Of a stretch of 64,000 nt of DNA, positions 30,001-42,000 are shown piece after piece. The stretch is from Bdellovibrionales bacterium (GTDB lineage Bacteria > Bdellovibrionota > Bdellovibrionia > Bdellovibrionales > UBA1609), in contig CBDBIB010000002.1 of NCBI GenBank assembly GCA_965205945.1, positions 263,999 to 327,998 of the forward strand, read 5' to 3'. Each line of letters opens with the position of its first letter. Within the stretch, counting starts at the first letter, position 1. The position numbers are program-made.

Positions 30001-33000
30001 AAAACTTTTAAAAAAAATGAAGAAACCAATGCTAGTCATTATGCGTATAAAGAAAGGCAAAGAAGAGCTGCAAGGCGTCGTGTTTTGGGCTTTAAAAATG
30101 AAGAAAGTAAATTAAAATGAGAAATTTAAAGTTATTTTTATCAATTTTTCGAGGTCTTTTTATTGCTTTAAATATGTTGATTTTAGGAGGATTATTTTCA
30201 TTTTTATATTTTATTTTAGGTTATAATATCACATCAAAACTTGGAATTTCTTGGCTTTGGGGGAAACTTTTTATTTGGATTGTCACCTCAAAGCTTATAA
30301 TAATAGGAAAAAAAAATATTCCCCAAAAAGATGGAGCTATTTTTTTATTTTCACATTCAAGCTATTTAGATATTCCAATTCTTTGTGCAACAAAGAATTG
30401 GAAAATTAACTTTGTGGCAAAATCATACTTACTAGATTACCCAGTATTAGGATTTATTATGAAATTAGTTAAAATGATAATTATTTATCCTGATCGAAGA
30501 GAATCAATTAAACAGTATAAGCTAGCTGAGGAAAGACTTAAACAAGGTGAATCTTTTATGATTGCTCCTGAAGGAAGTAGAAGTAGTGGAGAAGAACTTT
30601 TGCCTTTTAAGTCAGGTCCATTTATATTTGCAATGAATGCTAGAGCAGATCTAGTTCCTGTTTTAATTTATGGTTCACATAAGATCTGGCCTAAAAAAGA
30701 TAAATTACCGAATATGAGAAATCTTTTTGGAACAATCTATATTGAATACCTTCCTAAAGTAAGCATCATTGATTTTAAAGAGGAGAATAGAAAAGAAAAA
30801 GCTGAAGAGGTAAGACAAATGATGTTAAAAAAACTTGTTAAATATCAAAAATTAAAATCTATATTTTGATTGATATAAATTATAGTAGTGTCATTACAAA
30901 AAAGGTGCATATTGCACCTTTTTATTATTTAAATCTAATCTAACTGAGTTTAAGTAATCATAAAAAAGCGATTATGTGTTTTTTATTCGTTAGCTCCAGC
31001 TTTAATTAATAACTCTACGACTTTAGTGTGACCTTTGATTGTAGCGATTGCAAGAGCTGTATAACCGTTGTTATCTTGAATATTTACATCAGCTTGAGCT
31101 TTAATTAACAACTCTGCTATCTCAGTGTTACCATTAAATGCAGTCCACATAAGAGCTGTTATACCTTGGTAAGTTTTAGCGTTTACATCAGCTTGAGCTT
31201 TAATTAATAAGTCTACGATTTTAGTGTGACCATTGAGTACAGCAATTATAAGAGCTGCGTAACCGTTGTTATCTTCAACATTTACATCAGCTTGAGCTTT
31301 AATTAATAAGTCTACCATTTTAGTGTGACCTTTAAATACCGCAAACATAAGAGCTGTGCCTTCAATTTGATCTTTATTTATAATATAAGAATTAAGGCTA
31401 AAAAGCTCTTTGCAATTAGTTTTATGATTTAAAAATGACTTAAGAGATTTTATGTTATTCTCGTCAATACTTTTTGTTAAAAGTTCTTCACATTTTTTTG
31501 AAGTCATATTTTGTGCTGCAAAAGCACCTACACTTAAAAGTGTTGATACTGTTAAGATGATTAATTTTTTCATTGTTTTACTCTCCTTGCTATTGGTTTA
31601 TTTAGTGTCGTTTTTATAACATATTTTTAGTGTTATGTGGGTTAATTTTGTGAAGGTGTGTAAAATTTATAGATCACGGTGTTAAGAAATTAGATAATGT
31701 CTTATGATTTTACAAAACAATATACAATATAAAAAAAGGTGCAATATGCACCTTTTTTTTATTTAAATCTAATCTAACTGAGTTTAAGTAATCATAAAAA
31801 AGCGATTATGTGTTTTTTATTCGTTAGCTTGAGCTTGAATTAATAAATCTATGATTTTAGTGTAGGCGTCGTCTGCAGCGTATGTAGGAGTTTTTTTTCT
31901 AATATTATTTTGAACAGCTACTATAAGAGCTGTTTCTCTAAAATTATTTTTGATATGTAAATTAGCCAAAGCTTTAATTAATAATTCTACGACTTTAGGG
32001 TGACCTTGGCCTGCAGCCATAATAAGAGCTGTGTCTCCAGAAATATTTTGAAGATTTACATCAGCCTGAGCTTTAATTAATAATTCTACGACTTTAGGGT
32101 GACCTTGGCCTGCAGCCATAATAAGAGCTGTGTTATCTTCGTAATTTTGAAGATTTACATCAGCCTGAGCTTTAATTAATAATTCTACGACTTTAGGGTG
32201 ACCAGATTTTGCAGCGTATAAAAGAGCTGTATTACCTTCGTAACTTTGAAAATTTACATTAGCTTGAGCTTTAATTAACAACTCTAGAATTTCAATGTGA
32301 TTAAACCATGCAGCCATAATAAGAGCTGTACTGCCATCATATTTATTTTGGACATTCACATTAGCTTGAGCTTTAATCAACAACTCTACTATTTTAGTGC
32401 GACCATAAAGTGCCCCAATTATAAGAGCTGTTTCACCACGTTTATCTTGAATATTTACATCAGCTTGAGCTTTAATTAATAAGTCTACGATTTTAGTGTG
32501 ACCATTGAATACCGCTAACATAAGAGCTGTGCTTTCTTTTTCATATTTAGTTTTAACATAAGAATTAAGGCTAAAAAGCTCTTTGCAATTAGTTTTATGA
32601 CTTAAAAATGACTTAAGAGATTTTATGTTATTCTCGTCAATACTTTTTGTTAAAAGTTCTTCACATTTTTTTGAAGTCATACCTTGTGCTGCAAAAGCAC
32701 CTACACTTAAAAATGTTAATACTGTTAAGATGATTAATTTTTTCATTGTTTTAACTCTCCTTGTTACTGGATTACTTAAGTTGTTTTTTAATAGGCCCTT
32801 AGTATTATGTCGATTACTTTTGTGAAAGTGTGTAAAATTTATAGATCACGGCGTTAAGGAATTAGATAGTGCCTTATGATTTTAGAAAACAATATAAAAA
32901 AAAGGTGCATATTACACCTTTTTATTATTTAAATTTAACCTAACTTACTTAAGTAACCATAAAAAAGCGATTATGTATTTTTTATTCTTTAGCTTGAGCT

Positions 33001-39000: not shown

Positions 39001-42000
39001 CCACATAAGAGCTGTATCTCCGGGAATATTTTGAACATTTACATCAGCTTGAGCTTTAATTAATAAGTCTACCATTTTAGTATAATCTTGGAGTGCAGCG
39101 ATTGTAAGAGCTGTGTTACCATATTTAGTTTCAACATTTAAATCAGCTTGAGCTTTAATTAATAAGTCTAGAATTTCAATGTGATTAAACCATACAGCCA
39201 TAATAAGAGCTGTGTTACCATATTTATTTTGAAGATTTACATCAGCTTGAGCTTTAATTAATAACTCTACCATTTTAGTTCGACCGAGTTTTGTAGCCCA
39301 CATAAGAGCTGTGTCTTCATTTTCATCTTCGTTTTTAATATAAGAATTAAGGTTAAAAAGCTCTTTGCAATTAGTTTTATGATTTAAAAATGACTCAAGA
39401 GATTTTATGTTATTCTCGTCAATACTTTTTGTTAAAAGTTCTTCACATTTTTTTGAAGTCATATTTTGTGCTGCAAAAGCACCTACACTTAAAAGTGTTG
39501 ATACTGTTAAGATGATTAATTTTTTCATTGTTTTACTCTCCTTGTTGTTGAGTTACTTAGTGTCGTTTTTATAACATATTTTTAGTGTTGTGTGGGTTAA
39601 TTTTGTGAAAGTATGTAAAATTTATAGATTACGGCGTTAAGGAATTAGATAGTGTCTTATAATTTTAAAAAACAATATAAAAAAAGTGCATATTGCACCT
39701 TTTTATTATTTAAATTTAACCTAACTTACCTAAGTAACCATAAAAAAAGCGATTATGTATTTTTTATTCTTTAGCTCCAGCTTTAATTAATAATTTTACG
39801 ATTGTATCGTAGCCGCCATTTATAGCAATTATAAGAGCTGTATAACCATGGTAGTGATCTTGAATATTTACATCAGCTTGAGCTTTAATTAATAAGTCTA
39901 GAATTTCAATGTGATTAAACCATACAGCCATAATAAGAGCTGTGTCACCATATTTATTTTGAACATTTACATCAGCTTGAGCTTTAATCAATAATCTTAC
40001 CATTTTAGTGTTATCGCGGAGTACAGCAGCTATAAAAGGTGTATAACCGGGGCTATCTTGAATATTTACATCAGCTTGAGCCTTAATTAACAATTCTACC
40101 ATTTTAGCATTACCATTGAGTGTATAATCTTAAAAAAACTTATCTTTAAGTCTCTTTTTATTTGTTTAATATTCGTAATAACTACTTACTGACGTGACCA
40201 AGCCTATGAATTAAGTTAAAATTTTCTTTAAAAAATTTAGATACGAGGTTTATATGAAAATTCAAAGTGTTGGTGTTGTTGGATCTGGTCAGATGGGAAA
40301 TGGTATTGCACAAGTTTGTGCAGCTCATGGTAATTCAGTTGTAATGTATGATATATCCTTAGAGGCTTTACAAAAAGCTATGGTGACGATTTTAAAATCA
40401 TGTAATAAGATTATTCAAAAAGAAAGAATGACTGATGTTGAAAAAAATGATCTTCTTTTAAATATCAAGACTTCTCAAAATATCAAAGATTTAAAAGATT
40501 GTGATATTATTATTGAAGCAGTTACCGAAAATATAGATTTAAAACTTAAAATTTTTAAAAATTTAGACGAGATTGTAAAAAAAGATGCTTATTTATGTTC
40601 AAACACATCTTCTATATCAATTACAAAAATTGCAGCAATTACAAAAAGGCCAGATCTTGTTTGTGGTTTACACTTTATGAATCCTGTTCCCTTAATGAAA
40701 TTAGTTGAAGGCATTAAAGGTCTTCAAACAAGTGAGGAGACATTTAAAATAGTAAGATCTTTTGTAGAATCTTTAGGAAAAACCTTTGTTCATGCAAATG
40801 ATTACCCTGGATTTATTGTAAATAGAATTTTAATGCCTATGATTAATGAGGCTATTTATACTTTATACGAAGGTGTTGGGAAAGTTAAAGATATTGATAC
40901 CTCTATGAAATTAGGAACAAATCAACCAATGGGTCCTTTAAGCTTAGCAGATTTTATTGGTTTAGACACATGCCTTGCTATTATGAATGTTCTTCACAAA
41001 GATTTAGGGGATTCTAAGTATAGGCCTTGTCCATTATTAAAGAACTATGTTCAGGCAGGTTGGTTAGGCAGAAAAACAAAAAAAGGATTTTATAGTTATG
41101 AATAATTTAGTAAATTTTGAAATTAAAAATAGTACGGCTTGGATAACAATTAATAAAGAAGAGTCTTTAAATACTTTAAATTCTGAAGTTTTAAGTGGAT
41201 TAAAAGATTCAATAAAGGAAGCAGACAAAAAACATACCAGAACTATAGTTATCACAGGAGCTGGTGGAAAGGCTTTTGTTGCAGGTGCTGATATTAAAGA
41301 AATGAAGGAATTTACATCTATTCAGGCTACTAAATTTTCAGAAAAAGGGCACGCAGTATTTCAAAGTCTTGAAAAATCTAAAGCAGTAACTATTGCTATG
41401 GTGGATGGATTTGCTTTAGGTGGAGGTTTTGAGTTAGCCCTTTCATGTGATGTTATTTTTGCAACAAATAACTCAAAATTTGGTTTACCAGAGGTAGGTT
41501 TAGGGTTGATACCAGGATTTGGAGGAACACAAAGATTGTCAAGATCATTAGGTCTTCATATAGCAAAAGCTTTAATATTGTCTGGCGATATAGTTGATGC
41601 AAGGTTTTTAGAGTCTCAAGGTATAGTTTTTAAAATAAGTGAGAATAAAGAAGAACTTCTTTTACAAGTTAAGGCTTATATAAAAAGAATTCTTCAAAAA
41701 AGTCCACAAGCCGTTTCTACTGCAAAAATGACTATTCAAAAAGGGTATAGCTTAGAATTTATGGATGCTTTAAAGTTAGAACAGCAAGATTTTGCGTTGT
41801 TATTTGGTACTAAACAGACTCAAGAAGGAATGATTGCTTTTTTAGAAAAAAGAAAACCAAATTTTTAAAAAAGTATTTAAGGAATGTCAATGAGCAAAAA
41901 AATATACTACAAACCTAAGAATCCAGTTCGTATTGTCACCGCAACATCATTGTTTGATGGTCATGATGCTGCAATTAATATTATGAGAAGAATCTTACAG

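Follow-up and report, generated by a model that had tools for sequence, protein, structure and literature searches.

Exported bacterial ankyrin proteins can be steric inhibitors, as exemplified by Bd3460 of Bdellovibrio bacteriovorus, a periplasmic protein of 23 kDa that carries a signal peptide ahead of its six ankyrin repeats and blocks DD-endopeptidases (PMC4686830). In Chromulinavorax, 98 ankyrin proteins are reported, 78% of them with signal peptides (PMC6561590), and a phage-encoded ankyrin protein that bears a signal peptide is reported to reduce phagocytosis (bioRxiv 10.1101/608950). Ankyrin repeats are also a listed immunity type, Imm-ank (PMC3482391).

The window analyzed here, a 64,000-nucleotide stretch of a Bdellovibrionales genome, contains an array of ankyrin genes on the minus strand at positions 30983–40102. 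A reading to which we give about an even chance is that of a young, species-specific, recombining tandem family of small exported ankyrin proteins, serving as a binder repertoire aimed at foreign proteins.

Organization and distribution of the family

The array comprises nine intact genes and one 5'-truncated copy, all ten of which match Pfam Ank with E-values of 1.7e-14 to 3.1e-110. Each intact gene encodes a signal-peptide-like N-terminus, an N-domain with two cysteines and 2–12 ankyrin repeats, followed by its own terminator. This gene map agrees with that of the initial annotation, whose range of 1 to ~12 repeats becomes 2–12 when repeats are counted by the L[LI]I[KQ]A anchor. The genes, assigned from open reading frames and Pfam matches, are:

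30983..31573, minus strand: gene 1, 196 aa; putative signal peptide, N-domain and 4 ankyrin repeats (Pfam Ank 1.4e-32)
31817..32746, minus strand: gene 2, 309 aa; 7 repeats, with an 11-aa insertion in the last one
32982..34370, minus strand: gene 3, 462 aa; 12 repeats
34605..34997, minus strand: gene 4, 130 aa; 2 repeats
35233..36024, minus strand: gene 5, 263 aa; 6 repeats
36260..36949, minus strand: gene 6, 229 aa; 5 repeats
37183..37872, minus strand: gene 7, 229 aa; 5 repeats
38110..38601, minus strand: gene 8, 163 aa; 3 repeats
38836..39528, minus strand: gene 9, 230 aa; 5 repeats (also modeled)
39764..40102, minus strand: gene 10, 5'-truncated copy; 3 repeats and a 15-aa piece

Repeat number thus differs from copy to copy, and three repeat types are duplicated internally in gene 3 (repeats 5–7 and 9–11). 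Gene 10 has neither signal peptide nor N-domain and forms the hbd-side edge of the array.

The nine intergenic regions, 233–243 nt long, are mosaics of haplotype blocks and differ pairwise by 0.113 on average (range 0.004–0.213); an Rfam search of the intergenic unit yielded 0 families above the gathering score. One terminator-like hairpin lies 3' of each of the ten copies:

34371..34604, minus strand: representative intergenic unit with terminator, a conserved upstream stretch of ~150 nt and an AAGGAG Shine-Dalgarno site
30899..30923, minus strand: terminator hairpin after gene 1 (terminator search and alignment)
31731..31759, 32899..32923, 34519..34551, 35149..35174, 36176..36201, 37099..37124, 38021..38051, 38752..38776 and 39680..39704, minus strand: equivalent hairpins

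Terminator-like sites number 15 in the array region, as opposed to 3.6 ± 1.8 in shuffled sequences. The previous assignment of a promoter and a terminator to every gene therefore stands with respect to the terminators. However, the sigma-70 consensus is not enriched in the region (37 sites versus 48 expected), so that a promoter for each gene is suggested only by the conserved upstream sequence and the AAGGAG site.

The array occupies the interval between plsC and hbd, its flanks being an acyltransferase and a 3-hydroxyacyl-CoA dehydrogenase. These two genes are adjacent in all four congeners, i.e. the site is without an array there, and the N-regions of the array genes differ by only 0.024 at synonymous sites; both observations argue for a young array. 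Besides its nine copies in the array, the N-domain occurs at C1:209088, C1:209361 and, as a tandem pair, at C3:145271 and C3:145492; a weakly matching sequence at C3:321695 contains stops. A decayed member is located within the window:

27193..27429, minus strand: N-domain with in-frame stops (C2:291191-291337) and the same terminator as the array genes

Two near-identical lipoprotein genes flank this remnant. N-domain matches were found in one of the four congeners, G003 (5 matches, 41–46% identity), and in none of 36 other relatives. The initial annotation had counted nine array copies, five weak matches in a single congener (G069, 35–42% identity) and none in 19 other relatives. In G003 the family has a uniform scaffold of its own, KALIDAGADVNIQ, which argues for concerted evolution. 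The three other congeners lack the array, which is thus not essential to the genus. The top ankyrin ORFs begin with signal-like or lipoprotein-like N-termini in four of the five relatives' loci inspected. Several small genomes of the same family are rich in ankyrin proteins.

Variable surface and uniform scaffold

Per-position entropy was calculated over all 38 complete 33-residue repeats (36 unique). The highest value occurs at position 3 (3.38 bits), followed by positions 14 (2.76), 13 (2.69), 2 (2.53), 5 (2.46), 10 (2.00) and 32 (1.95), whereas positions 22–26 and 28 have zero entropy. All but position 10 had been recognized previously as variable. Positions 22–26 and 28 had also been reported as invariant, correctly, together with G4 and T6; the latter two amount to 1.07 and 0.77 bits, and had appeared invariant because the motif used for finding repeats selected for them. 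The family also varies at positions 9, 12 and 16, alongside position 10. Amino-acid change clusters at the tip of the hairpin and in helix 1, and aromatic residues account for 24% of the 252 hypervariable residues versus 0 of the 936 scaffold residues.

In a PDB alignment, positions 2, 3, 5, 13 and 14 align with the sites at which the three internal repeats of the designed ankyrin protein (DARPin) D12 diverge, whereas position 32 aligns with a framework alanine adjoining the randomised position 33. The list of six randomised DARPin positions was checked here against D12 alone; its proposed equivalence with the variable positions holds for the first five and fails at position 32. ANK-N5C, an independent library, has position 10 among its randomised sites (PMC4308713). 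The D12 alignment and the published ANK-N5C design would place the variable residues on the concave face of the solenoid. Natural ankyrin repeats generally vary most at these positions, and designers chose them accordingly (PMC4308713). Thus the entropy profile alone is unremarkable, and it is the contrast with the frozen scaffold that is special.

Codon heterozygosity at 25 scaffold positions is 0.078, compared with 0.531 expected from genome codon usage, and the four-fold third positions of the scaffold show almost no variation. These values support a uniformity at synonymous sites beyond what codon bias can yield. The framework common to all repeats is either identical by descent or homogenised by gene conversion. 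Recombination among the array copies is pervasive: four gametes occur at 612 of 1035 pairs of informative sites, and the observed clustering was reached by 0 of 2000 permutations. Hairpin cassettes (positions 1–5) and helix-1 cassettes (positions 9–16) are reassorted between repeats and genes: 51 repeats hold 33 distinct hairpins and 35 distinct helices, joined in 42 combinations, and blocks common to several repeats occur in differing contexts. Part of the diversity is accounted for by such reshuffling of existing cassettes rather than by new mutation. In addition, each amino-acid state is mostly encoded by a single codon, so that much of the diversity consists of old variants copied around. 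The earlier description of an invariant scaffold with a diversified binding face is therefore retained for the frozen scaffold and the concentration of change, with the qualification that the diversity is in part reshuffled.

By Nei-Gojobori counts, the six hypervariable codons differ by 0.525 at non-synonymous sites and the 27 scaffold codons by 0.127 at synonymous sites (0.90 versus 0.139 after Jukes-Cantor correction), compared with 0.52 and 0.16 reported before. Non-independence of the repeats was allowed for by counting events on a minimum spanning tree of 39 unique repeats (38 edges). Along the 7 shortest edges, the single-base changes are 17 non-synonymous and 0 synonymous (p = 0.017). 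Across the whole tree, the hypervariable sites accumulate 3.9 single-base non-synonymous changes per site and 47 multi-base codon changes, versus 1.84 synonymous changes per site, and the overall single-base non-synonymous excess is not significant (182 to 39, p = 0.098). The tree counts support a non-synonymous excess that persists when they replace the all-pair counts.

A neutral origin of this pattern is improbable in our judgment. It would involve recent amplification followed by conversion that homogenises long identical tracts, with unconstrained surface codons escaping and drifting in proteins that have one ordinary function or are decaying. Consistent with this, dN/dS within the hypervariable codons is ~1 (0.525/0.534), the scaffold non-synonymous difference of 0.156 is close to its synonymous counterpart, remnants and truncated copies exist (gene 10, the decayed member in the window and the copies on C1 and C3), and the most variable positions are those of ankyrin repeats in general. 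Nonetheless, open frames, signal sequences, both cysteines and terminators are kept in nine copies, the youngest repeat pairs show the purely non-synonymous changes given above, and the aromatic content of the variable sites is not expected from drift at 32% G+C. Moreover, identical hypervariable cassettes are present in several genes, and hence these codons do not escape copying. Dedicated hypermutation of surface codons, for example by a diversity-generating retroelement, has the sharp localisation of the variation as its sole support and is close to refuted. Changes involve third codon positions and all four bases, every copy is variable so that an invariant template copy is missing, and a reverse transcriptase (PF00078) was not found in the genome (97% complete) by a search that matched 3 control genomes; a retroelement mechanism is therefore not supported.

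Fold, predicted export and candidate functions

AlphaFold2 predicted an all-ankyrin solenoid for mature gene 9 (pLDDT 92.1, pTM 0.89), and designed ankyrin proteins aligned by Foldseek over up to 203 columns of this 210-residue model with TM-scores up to 0.85. The mature protein is thus predicted to be an ankyrin solenoid along its full length, N-domain included. The N-terminus, read by eye (MKK, a 15-residue hydrophobic stretch and AFA|AQ), would be a Sec signal peptide that signal peptidase I removes. Residues C28 and C54 are shared by all 10 aligned N-domains and may form a disulfide made by the VKOR-DsbA protein, whose gene is present in the genome. The folded proteins would then remain periplasmic or exit via the type II system, for which a GspC/D/E/F/G locus is present. 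Together, these features suggest export. Neither of two marker genes searched for type IV and type VI secretion was found in the genome. A search for TLC-family ATP/ADP translocases gave 0 matches, as it did in 14 of 14 control genomes, and hence carries no weight.

In the proposed mechanism, each paralogue would bind a different protein of another organism, be it host, prey or competitor, via its aromatic-rich concave face; selection for new specificities acting on recombining cassettes would maintain a diverse surface, and conversion a uniform framework. A tentative and less probable alternative makes the proteins periplasmic inhibitors of lytic enzymes or toxins. Their targets would be enzymes that the cell itself secretes, as for Bd3460, or toxins delivered by competitors, as in a homogeneous polyimmunity locus. 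Bd3460 provides the precedent, and the 5-repeat members (229–230 aa) resemble it. The tandem same-orientation paralogues, lacking a toxin gene among them and differing in content between close relatives, resemble polyimmunity loci as described (PMC3482391), and an RHS-repeat/DUF6531 protein encoded in the genome makes interbacterial antagonism plausible. However, no enzyme or toxin gene adjoins the array, and the sole Peptidase_S13 gene lies on another contig (C1:197628-198812). Self-protection should be conserved, yet the family was found in only one congener and the site is empty in all four. Polyimmunity loci are tightly spaced and probably polycistronic, in contrast to the long spacers and individual terminators seen here, and the nucleases with which the listed Imm-ank proteins are associated have the cytoplasm as their site of action (PMC3482391). 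Secreted binders aimed at host or prey are thus preferred, only slightly, to periplasmic immunity proteins.

Comparison with described systems

Bd3460 shares with the array proteins a signal peptide (putative in the latter), about six ankyrin repeats, a size near 23 kDa and a related bacterial lineage. It is, however, a single gene adjoining its endopeptidase target, in a synteny conserved among periplasmic predators, whereas the array comprises nine paralogues with neither an adjoining enzyme nor conservation among congeners. Homogeneous polyimmunity loci are likewise toxin-free tandems of paralogous binder genes in one orientation that vary between relatives; the array departs from them in its long spacers with individual terminators and its predicted export, and a link to toxin families was not found. 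Chromulinavorax destructans and the sponge-symbiont phage ANKp resemble the array, with its predicted export, in having multi-copy, Sec-type exported ankyrin proteins, thought or shown to act on the eukaryotic host once outside the cytoplasm of the bacterium. The families concerned are large, with dispersed members, and the available texts do not describe a frozen framework with hypervariable contact sites.

DARPins and ANK-N5C share with the array a consensus-like invariant framework in which only the tip of the hairpin and helix 1 vary, and DARPins are the best structural matches of the gene 9 model. The array proteins are natural rather than designed, vary position 32 where DARPins vary 33, vary positions 9, 10, 12 and 16 as well, and have TALMWA where the consensus has TPLHLA. 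Unlike DARPins, they carry a cysteine-bearing N-terminal cap, a putative signal peptide and 2 to 12 repeats. TAL effectors are delivered by type III secretion, and each of their repeats recognises DNA bases through two residues. They share the logic of the array, namely repeats near-identical even in DNA, few specificity positions and recombination that gives new combinations. The array differs from them in its ankyrin fold and its approximately seven variable positions, the TAL ligand being DNA.

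Architecture of the array, its spacers and its predicted fold

The nine-gene ankyrin array with a uniform scaffold and a variable surface, as described in the initial annotation, is real and well beyond chance. It is one of only four places with ankyrin repeats or copies of the family in this genome of 1.87 Mb and 32% G+C. The N-terminal part of the 488-aa ORF, which is unrelated to the array, looks glutaminase-like by eye.

Table. Ankyrin repeats and family copies in the source genome (C1 and C3 are contigs).
Window 30983–40102, minus strand: the array, nine complete ORFs (130–462 aa) and one 5'-truncated ORF (112 aa)
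C1:209085–209657: two tandem ORFs, each a putative signal peptide and the N-domain only
C3:145136–145797: remnant pair of tandem diverged family copies, the second with a single ankyrin repeat
C1:553032–554498, minus strand: 488-aa ORF with C-terminal ankyrin repeats unrelated to those of the array (Ank_2, 7.9e-14)

All ten array ORFs match Pfam Ank or Ank_2, with Ank scores of 53.5–354.1 bits against a cut-off of 21.1. Every complete gene begins with MKKLIILTV(S/L)T(L/F)LSVGAFAAQ, in which two lysines precede a hydrophobic run of 15 residues and an A-x-A site; this segment reads as a putative Sec signal peptide ending at AFA, before AQ. It is followed by ~47 residues with two cysteines, invariant in all ten aligned members from the source genome and the congener G003. 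Genes 1–9 contain 4, 7, 12, 2, 6, 5, 5, 3 and 5 ankyrin repeats, respectively, and the truncated copy contains three and a fragment; the counted range of 2–12 per complete gene thus raises the lower end of the 1 to ~12 given previously. There are 53 repeat segments in total, 38 of them exactly 33 aa long, and throughout the array the genes end within a repeat, at LLIKA(Q/G)A(K/N)E-stop. On the plus strand, ORFs of 54–66 aa (MLFS..FVKSSSHFFEVI..) recur at window positions 31452–39574, antisense to each N-domain (the ~70-aa N-terminal region with the two cysteines). They mirror conserved coding sequence and are most likely not genes.

The nine spacers of the array are 233–243 nt long and differ pairwise by 0.4–21%, with a mean of 11%. 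A hairpin, AAAAAGGTGCA..TGCACCTTTTT, lies 3' of every copy, and an AAGGAG site lies ahead of each start codon. The array region contains 15 terminator-like sites, where shuffled sequence gives 3.6 ± 1.8, which bears out the proposal that each gene has its own terminator. The companion proposal, a near-identical promoter for each gene, agrees with the conservation of the spacers but not with a sigma-70 consensus scan of the array, which yielded neither enrichment nor a consistent site in the spacers, so that separate promoters are deduced rather than seen. An RNA element in the conserved spacer was rejected: the Rfam search of the array region returned no family at gathering score, two weak matches (E = 0.04 and 0.08) fall on the terminator hairpins, and the spacer fold z-score of −5.2 is due to the terminator hairpin.

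The structure of the mature gene 9 protein was modeled by AlphaFold2 using a ten-member family alignment. The model (pLDDT 92.1, pTM 0.89) has helix pairs along its whole length, and its best matches in a Foldseek comparison with the PDB are designed ankyrin proteins. Six-repeat designs align to the 210-residue model over 202–203 columns with TM-scores of at most 0.85, and both designed and natural ankyrin structures are matched at a probability of 1.00. The predicted fold of the array proteins is a solenoid of stacked helix-turn-helix and hairpin units. As the six-repeat designs match nearly the whole model, the N-domain is predicted to form an atypical ankyrin-like cap with cysteines instead of a fold of its own. 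We infer a disulfide in the N-domain and a surface placement of the variable residues.

Three public read runs of one study hold 0.47, 0.39 and 0.21 of the sampled array words; these runs may share their source sample with the assembly and are not independent support. The matches are short contigs of ~100–200 bases, none of which, among the pieces listed, spans the whole stretch, and 112 of 115, 49 of 51 and 26 of 29 of them match the window at an identity of 99% or more. With nearly all contigs at that identity, assembly error as the cause of the array was set aside, and the reads weakly confirm the sequence. Alternative joints and loose ends in the reads mostly map to a decayed copy at window positions 27339–27429, and thus no structural variant is shown. 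No RNA data set carrying the array is listed among the public reads. Two 168-aa lipoprotein-like genes on the minus strand (window 26425–26931 and 27466–27972), one residue apart, flank this decayed ankyrin-family remnant and look like a duplicated unit of ~1 kb. Both have the lipobox LLIGC and a hydrophobic C-terminus, and neither matches Pfam.

Variable positions on a frozen, recombining framework

Over all 38 complete repeats the entropy is highest at positions 3, 14, 13, 2, 5, 10 and 32 (3.38 down to 1.95 bits) and zero at positions 22–26 and 28. The invariance formerly ascribed to G4 and T6 disappears once all repeats are counted (1.07 and 0.77 bits); the earlier zero values arose because the repeats had been picked by the motif G.T. 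DARPin libraries are randomised at positions 2, 3, 5, 13, 14 and 33. In a HMMER alignment, family positions 2, 3, 5, 13 and 14 coincide with those where the three internal repeats of DARPin D12 differ, whereas position 32 aligns with a D12 framework alanine adjoining variable position 33. On this alignment, the suggested equivalence with the DARPin-randomised positions would hold for five positions and not for position 32. Compared with DARPins, the family varies 32 in place of 33, and additionally 9, 10, 12 and 16.

ANK-N5C, an independent designed library, is randomised at positions 2, 3, 5, 10 and 13 (plus 33), which in its authors' account make up one unbroken surface across the hairpin and helix 1 and which were picked by the entropy of natural repeats (excerpts of PMC4308713). 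High entropy at such sites is thus ordinary for ankyrin proteins, and entropy is weaker evidence for binders than initially thought; the codon-level contrast and the shuffling of cassettes are stronger. Of the 252 residues at the seven variable positions 24% are aromatic, against none of the 936 in the scaffold, a composition expected of a contact surface and not of drift in an A+T-rich genome.

The framework of the array is frozen at the DNA level. At 25 scaffold positions the codon heterozygosity among repeats with the majority residue averages 0.078, against 0.531 predicted from the codon usage of 755 long ORFs of the genome, and minor codons such as GAC (Asp21), CAC (His16) and GTA (Val20) are fixed in all repeats with the majority residue. 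The Nei–Gojobori contrast on which the initial annotation relied was reproduced with 36 unique repeats: the non-synonymous difference at the six hypervariable codons is 0.525 and the synonymous difference at the 27 others is 0.127 (0.90 against 0.139 after correction). Inside the hypervariable codons the two kinds of difference are equal (non-synonymous 0.525, synonymous 0.534), and an amino-acid state mostly has one codon, for example AAA in 15 of 15 cases of Lys2 and AAT in 14 of 14 cases of Asn14, which indicates that the variants are a finite set of alleles copied around.

Because the repeats are not independent, changes were recounted on the edges of a minimum spanning tree that joins 39 unique repeats. 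On its seven shortest edges (at most 4 bases) there are 17 single-base non-synonymous changes and two multi-base codon changes, and synonymous changes are absent (binomial p = 0.017). With all 38 edges counted, the hypervariable codons accumulate 3.9 non-synonymous single-base changes per site, plus 47 multi-base codon changes, against 1.9 per site in the scaffold and 1.84 for synonymous changes. The tree totals of 182 non-synonymous and 39 synonymous single-base changes are not significant on their own (p = 0.098).

Each repeat was also divided into a hairpin block (codons 1–5) and a helix block (codons 9–16). The 51 repeats counted, which omit one 44-aa repeat and a 15-aa fragment, comprise 33 hairpin and 35 helix DNA types in 42 combinations; seven hairpin types have two or more helix partners, and six helix types have two or more hairpin partners. 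Close repeat pairs differ by lone non-synonymous bases or by entire swapped blocks. In the alignment of the spacers and N-regions of nine genes, four gametes occur in 612 of 1035 pairs of 46 informative sites, and site incompatibility clusters by distance to a degree attained in 0 of 2000 permutations. The N-region is more uniform than the spacers, with synonymous and non-synonymous differences of 0.024 and 0.041, respectively. The members in G003 have the same architecture, yet possess their own framework common to all repeats (..TALIWASWKGHTKIAKALIDAGADVNIQ), the signature of concerted evolution. A diversity-generating retroelement was rejected as the source of variation, since a search for reverse transcriptase (PF00078) found no match in the genome (97% complete) while control genomes matched.

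Distribution of the family

The gene order lipoprotein, 364-aa protein, acyltransferase, 3-hydroxyacyl-CoA dehydrogenase and enoyl-CoA hydratase is kept in four of four congeners, where the gap between the acyltransferase and the dehydrogenase is ~180–280 bases and the array is absent from that site. The near-adjacency of the flanking genes in all four shows that the 9.4-kb array at this site is particular to this species. Copies of the N-domain were found in two of the 41 genomes searched, the source genome and G003. A word index of 5.8 billion proteins returned three proteins, all from the source genome and none from elsewhere, and a full HMMER scan of 1.84 billion representatives returned five, one of which (P0003) is from the source genome; by length alone, two of the other four fit ORFs of G003 and two fit the copies on C1 and C3. 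A scan of the genome collection yielded one locus, in the congener. At three G003 loci (L002, L004 and L008) short or truncated family members adjoin transposase-like ORFs of 265–375 aa, which suggests that the family is being disrupted or moved by insertion sequences in that genome.

Other small genomes of the same bacterial family (1.2–1.8 Mb; G010, G022, G021, G012 and G031) contain many Ank_2 matches (109, 46, 42, 41 and 35), and an ankyrin ORF has a signal-like or lipoprotein-like N-terminus in four of the five relatives' loci inspected. The product of L015:1225–2364, in a relative, combines a signal-like N-terminus with five 34-aa repeats that are nearly identical, most of their differences being at hairpin and helix-1 residues. 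This pattern, in which the framework is uniform as in the array and the hairpin and helix residues vary, may be general in this group.

Export, function and comparison with known systems

A gene at window positions 18816–20021, minus strand, encodes a protein in which a VKOR membrane domain is joined to a DsbA-like thioredoxin domain (Pfam, 2.1e-16 and 4e-12); this fusion is probably the disulfide-forming system of the organism. The genome also contains a GspC-D-E-F-G cluster (contig C2:166410–173007) and type IV pilus and Tad loci. Searches of the genome gave no match to GspL, to TssC or to VirB4 (PF03135), the one marker used for type IV secretion, and single markers revealed no injection system. 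As the VKOR–DsbA fusion and the Gsp genes are present and VirB4 and TssC were not found, the available path would be Sec export and disulfide formation, followed by residence in the periplasm or secretion by the type II system.

The array is best read as a diversifying set of binders that would be exported and would engage a target. Secreted binders aimed at foreign proteins stand slightly ahead of periplasmic immunity proteins or inhibitors, and both stand well ahead of a neutral by-product. Signal-peptide ankyrin proteins of Chromulinavorax (78% of 98) are taken as host-directed factors (excerpts of PMC6561590), and a signal-peptide ankyrin protein of a sponge-symbiont phage lowered phagocytosis (excerpts of bioRxiv 10.1101/608950). 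By analogy, the ankyrin-rich small genomes of the family would fit this pattern of host-directed secreted ankyrins, an indirect hint. A search for ATP/ADP translocase found no match in the genome or in any control and is hence uninformative. The immunity reading has a precedent in Bd3460 of Bdellovibrio bacteriovorus, a signal-peptide protein with six ankyrin repeats that blocks the bacterium's own secreted endopeptidases in the periplasm (excerpts of PMC4686830). The array proteins likewise have a putative signal peptide followed by ankyrin repeats; however, unlike Bd3460, the array lacks an adjacent DD-endopeptidase and synteny among relatives. Its flanking genes, the acyltransferase and the 3-hydroxyacyl-CoA dehydrogenase, offer no neighbouring enzyme target, and the sole Peptidase_S13 gene is on another contig (C1:197628–198812).

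Further support for immunity comes from the listing of ankyrin repeats as an immunity type and from the existence of tandem polyimmunity loci (excerpts of PMC3482391). As in the homogeneous loci of this kind, the array paralogues are in tandem and in one orientation, have no toxin genes between them and differ between relatives. However, polyimmunity loci have short gaps and are probably polycistronic according to the same excerpts, whereas the array spacers are long, each with its terminator. The array is also not conserved among congeners, a point against the immunity reading as a whole. At C3:82961–84631 (L018:11961–13631) a 557-aa protein with DUF6531 and RHS-repeat matches adjoins the Tad pilus locus. 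If this protein is a polymorphic toxin, as is possible, it would bear on the immunity reading.

No published account of a bacterial ankyrin family that combines a homogenised framework with hypervariable contact sites came to light in the open-access full text searched. If the array is indeed a set of exported binders, evolution would have reached the solution of protein engineers, a single rigid ankyrin scaffold in which only a few contact positions vary. The natural sequences could then tell which additional positions (9, 10, 12, 16 and 32), and which N-terminal disulfide cap, are compatible with or favourable to binding outside the cytoplasm. They would also provide a handle on the dealings of these little-known small-genome relatives of Bdellovibrio with hosts, prey or competitors. 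For evolutionary biology, the array would be a compact case for separating conversion, cassette shuffling and selection codon by codon.

Unlike the type IV-secreted ankyrin effectors of Legionella and Coxiella, the array proteins belong to a genome in which VirB4 was not found, and their putative signal peptide together with the GspC–G branch likens them to Sec/type II-secreted ankyrin effectors. A bolder and rather unlikely reading takes the array as nature's germline-encoded equivalent of a designed binder library, in which recombination among the near-identical repeats keeps making new cassette combinations and repeat numbers within populations, renewing a set of extracytoplasmic binders in which each cassette is a separable piece of specificity. 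Such an array would resemble the assembly of leucine-rich-repeat receptors by jawless vertebrates and the reshuffling of TAL repeats by Xanthomonas.
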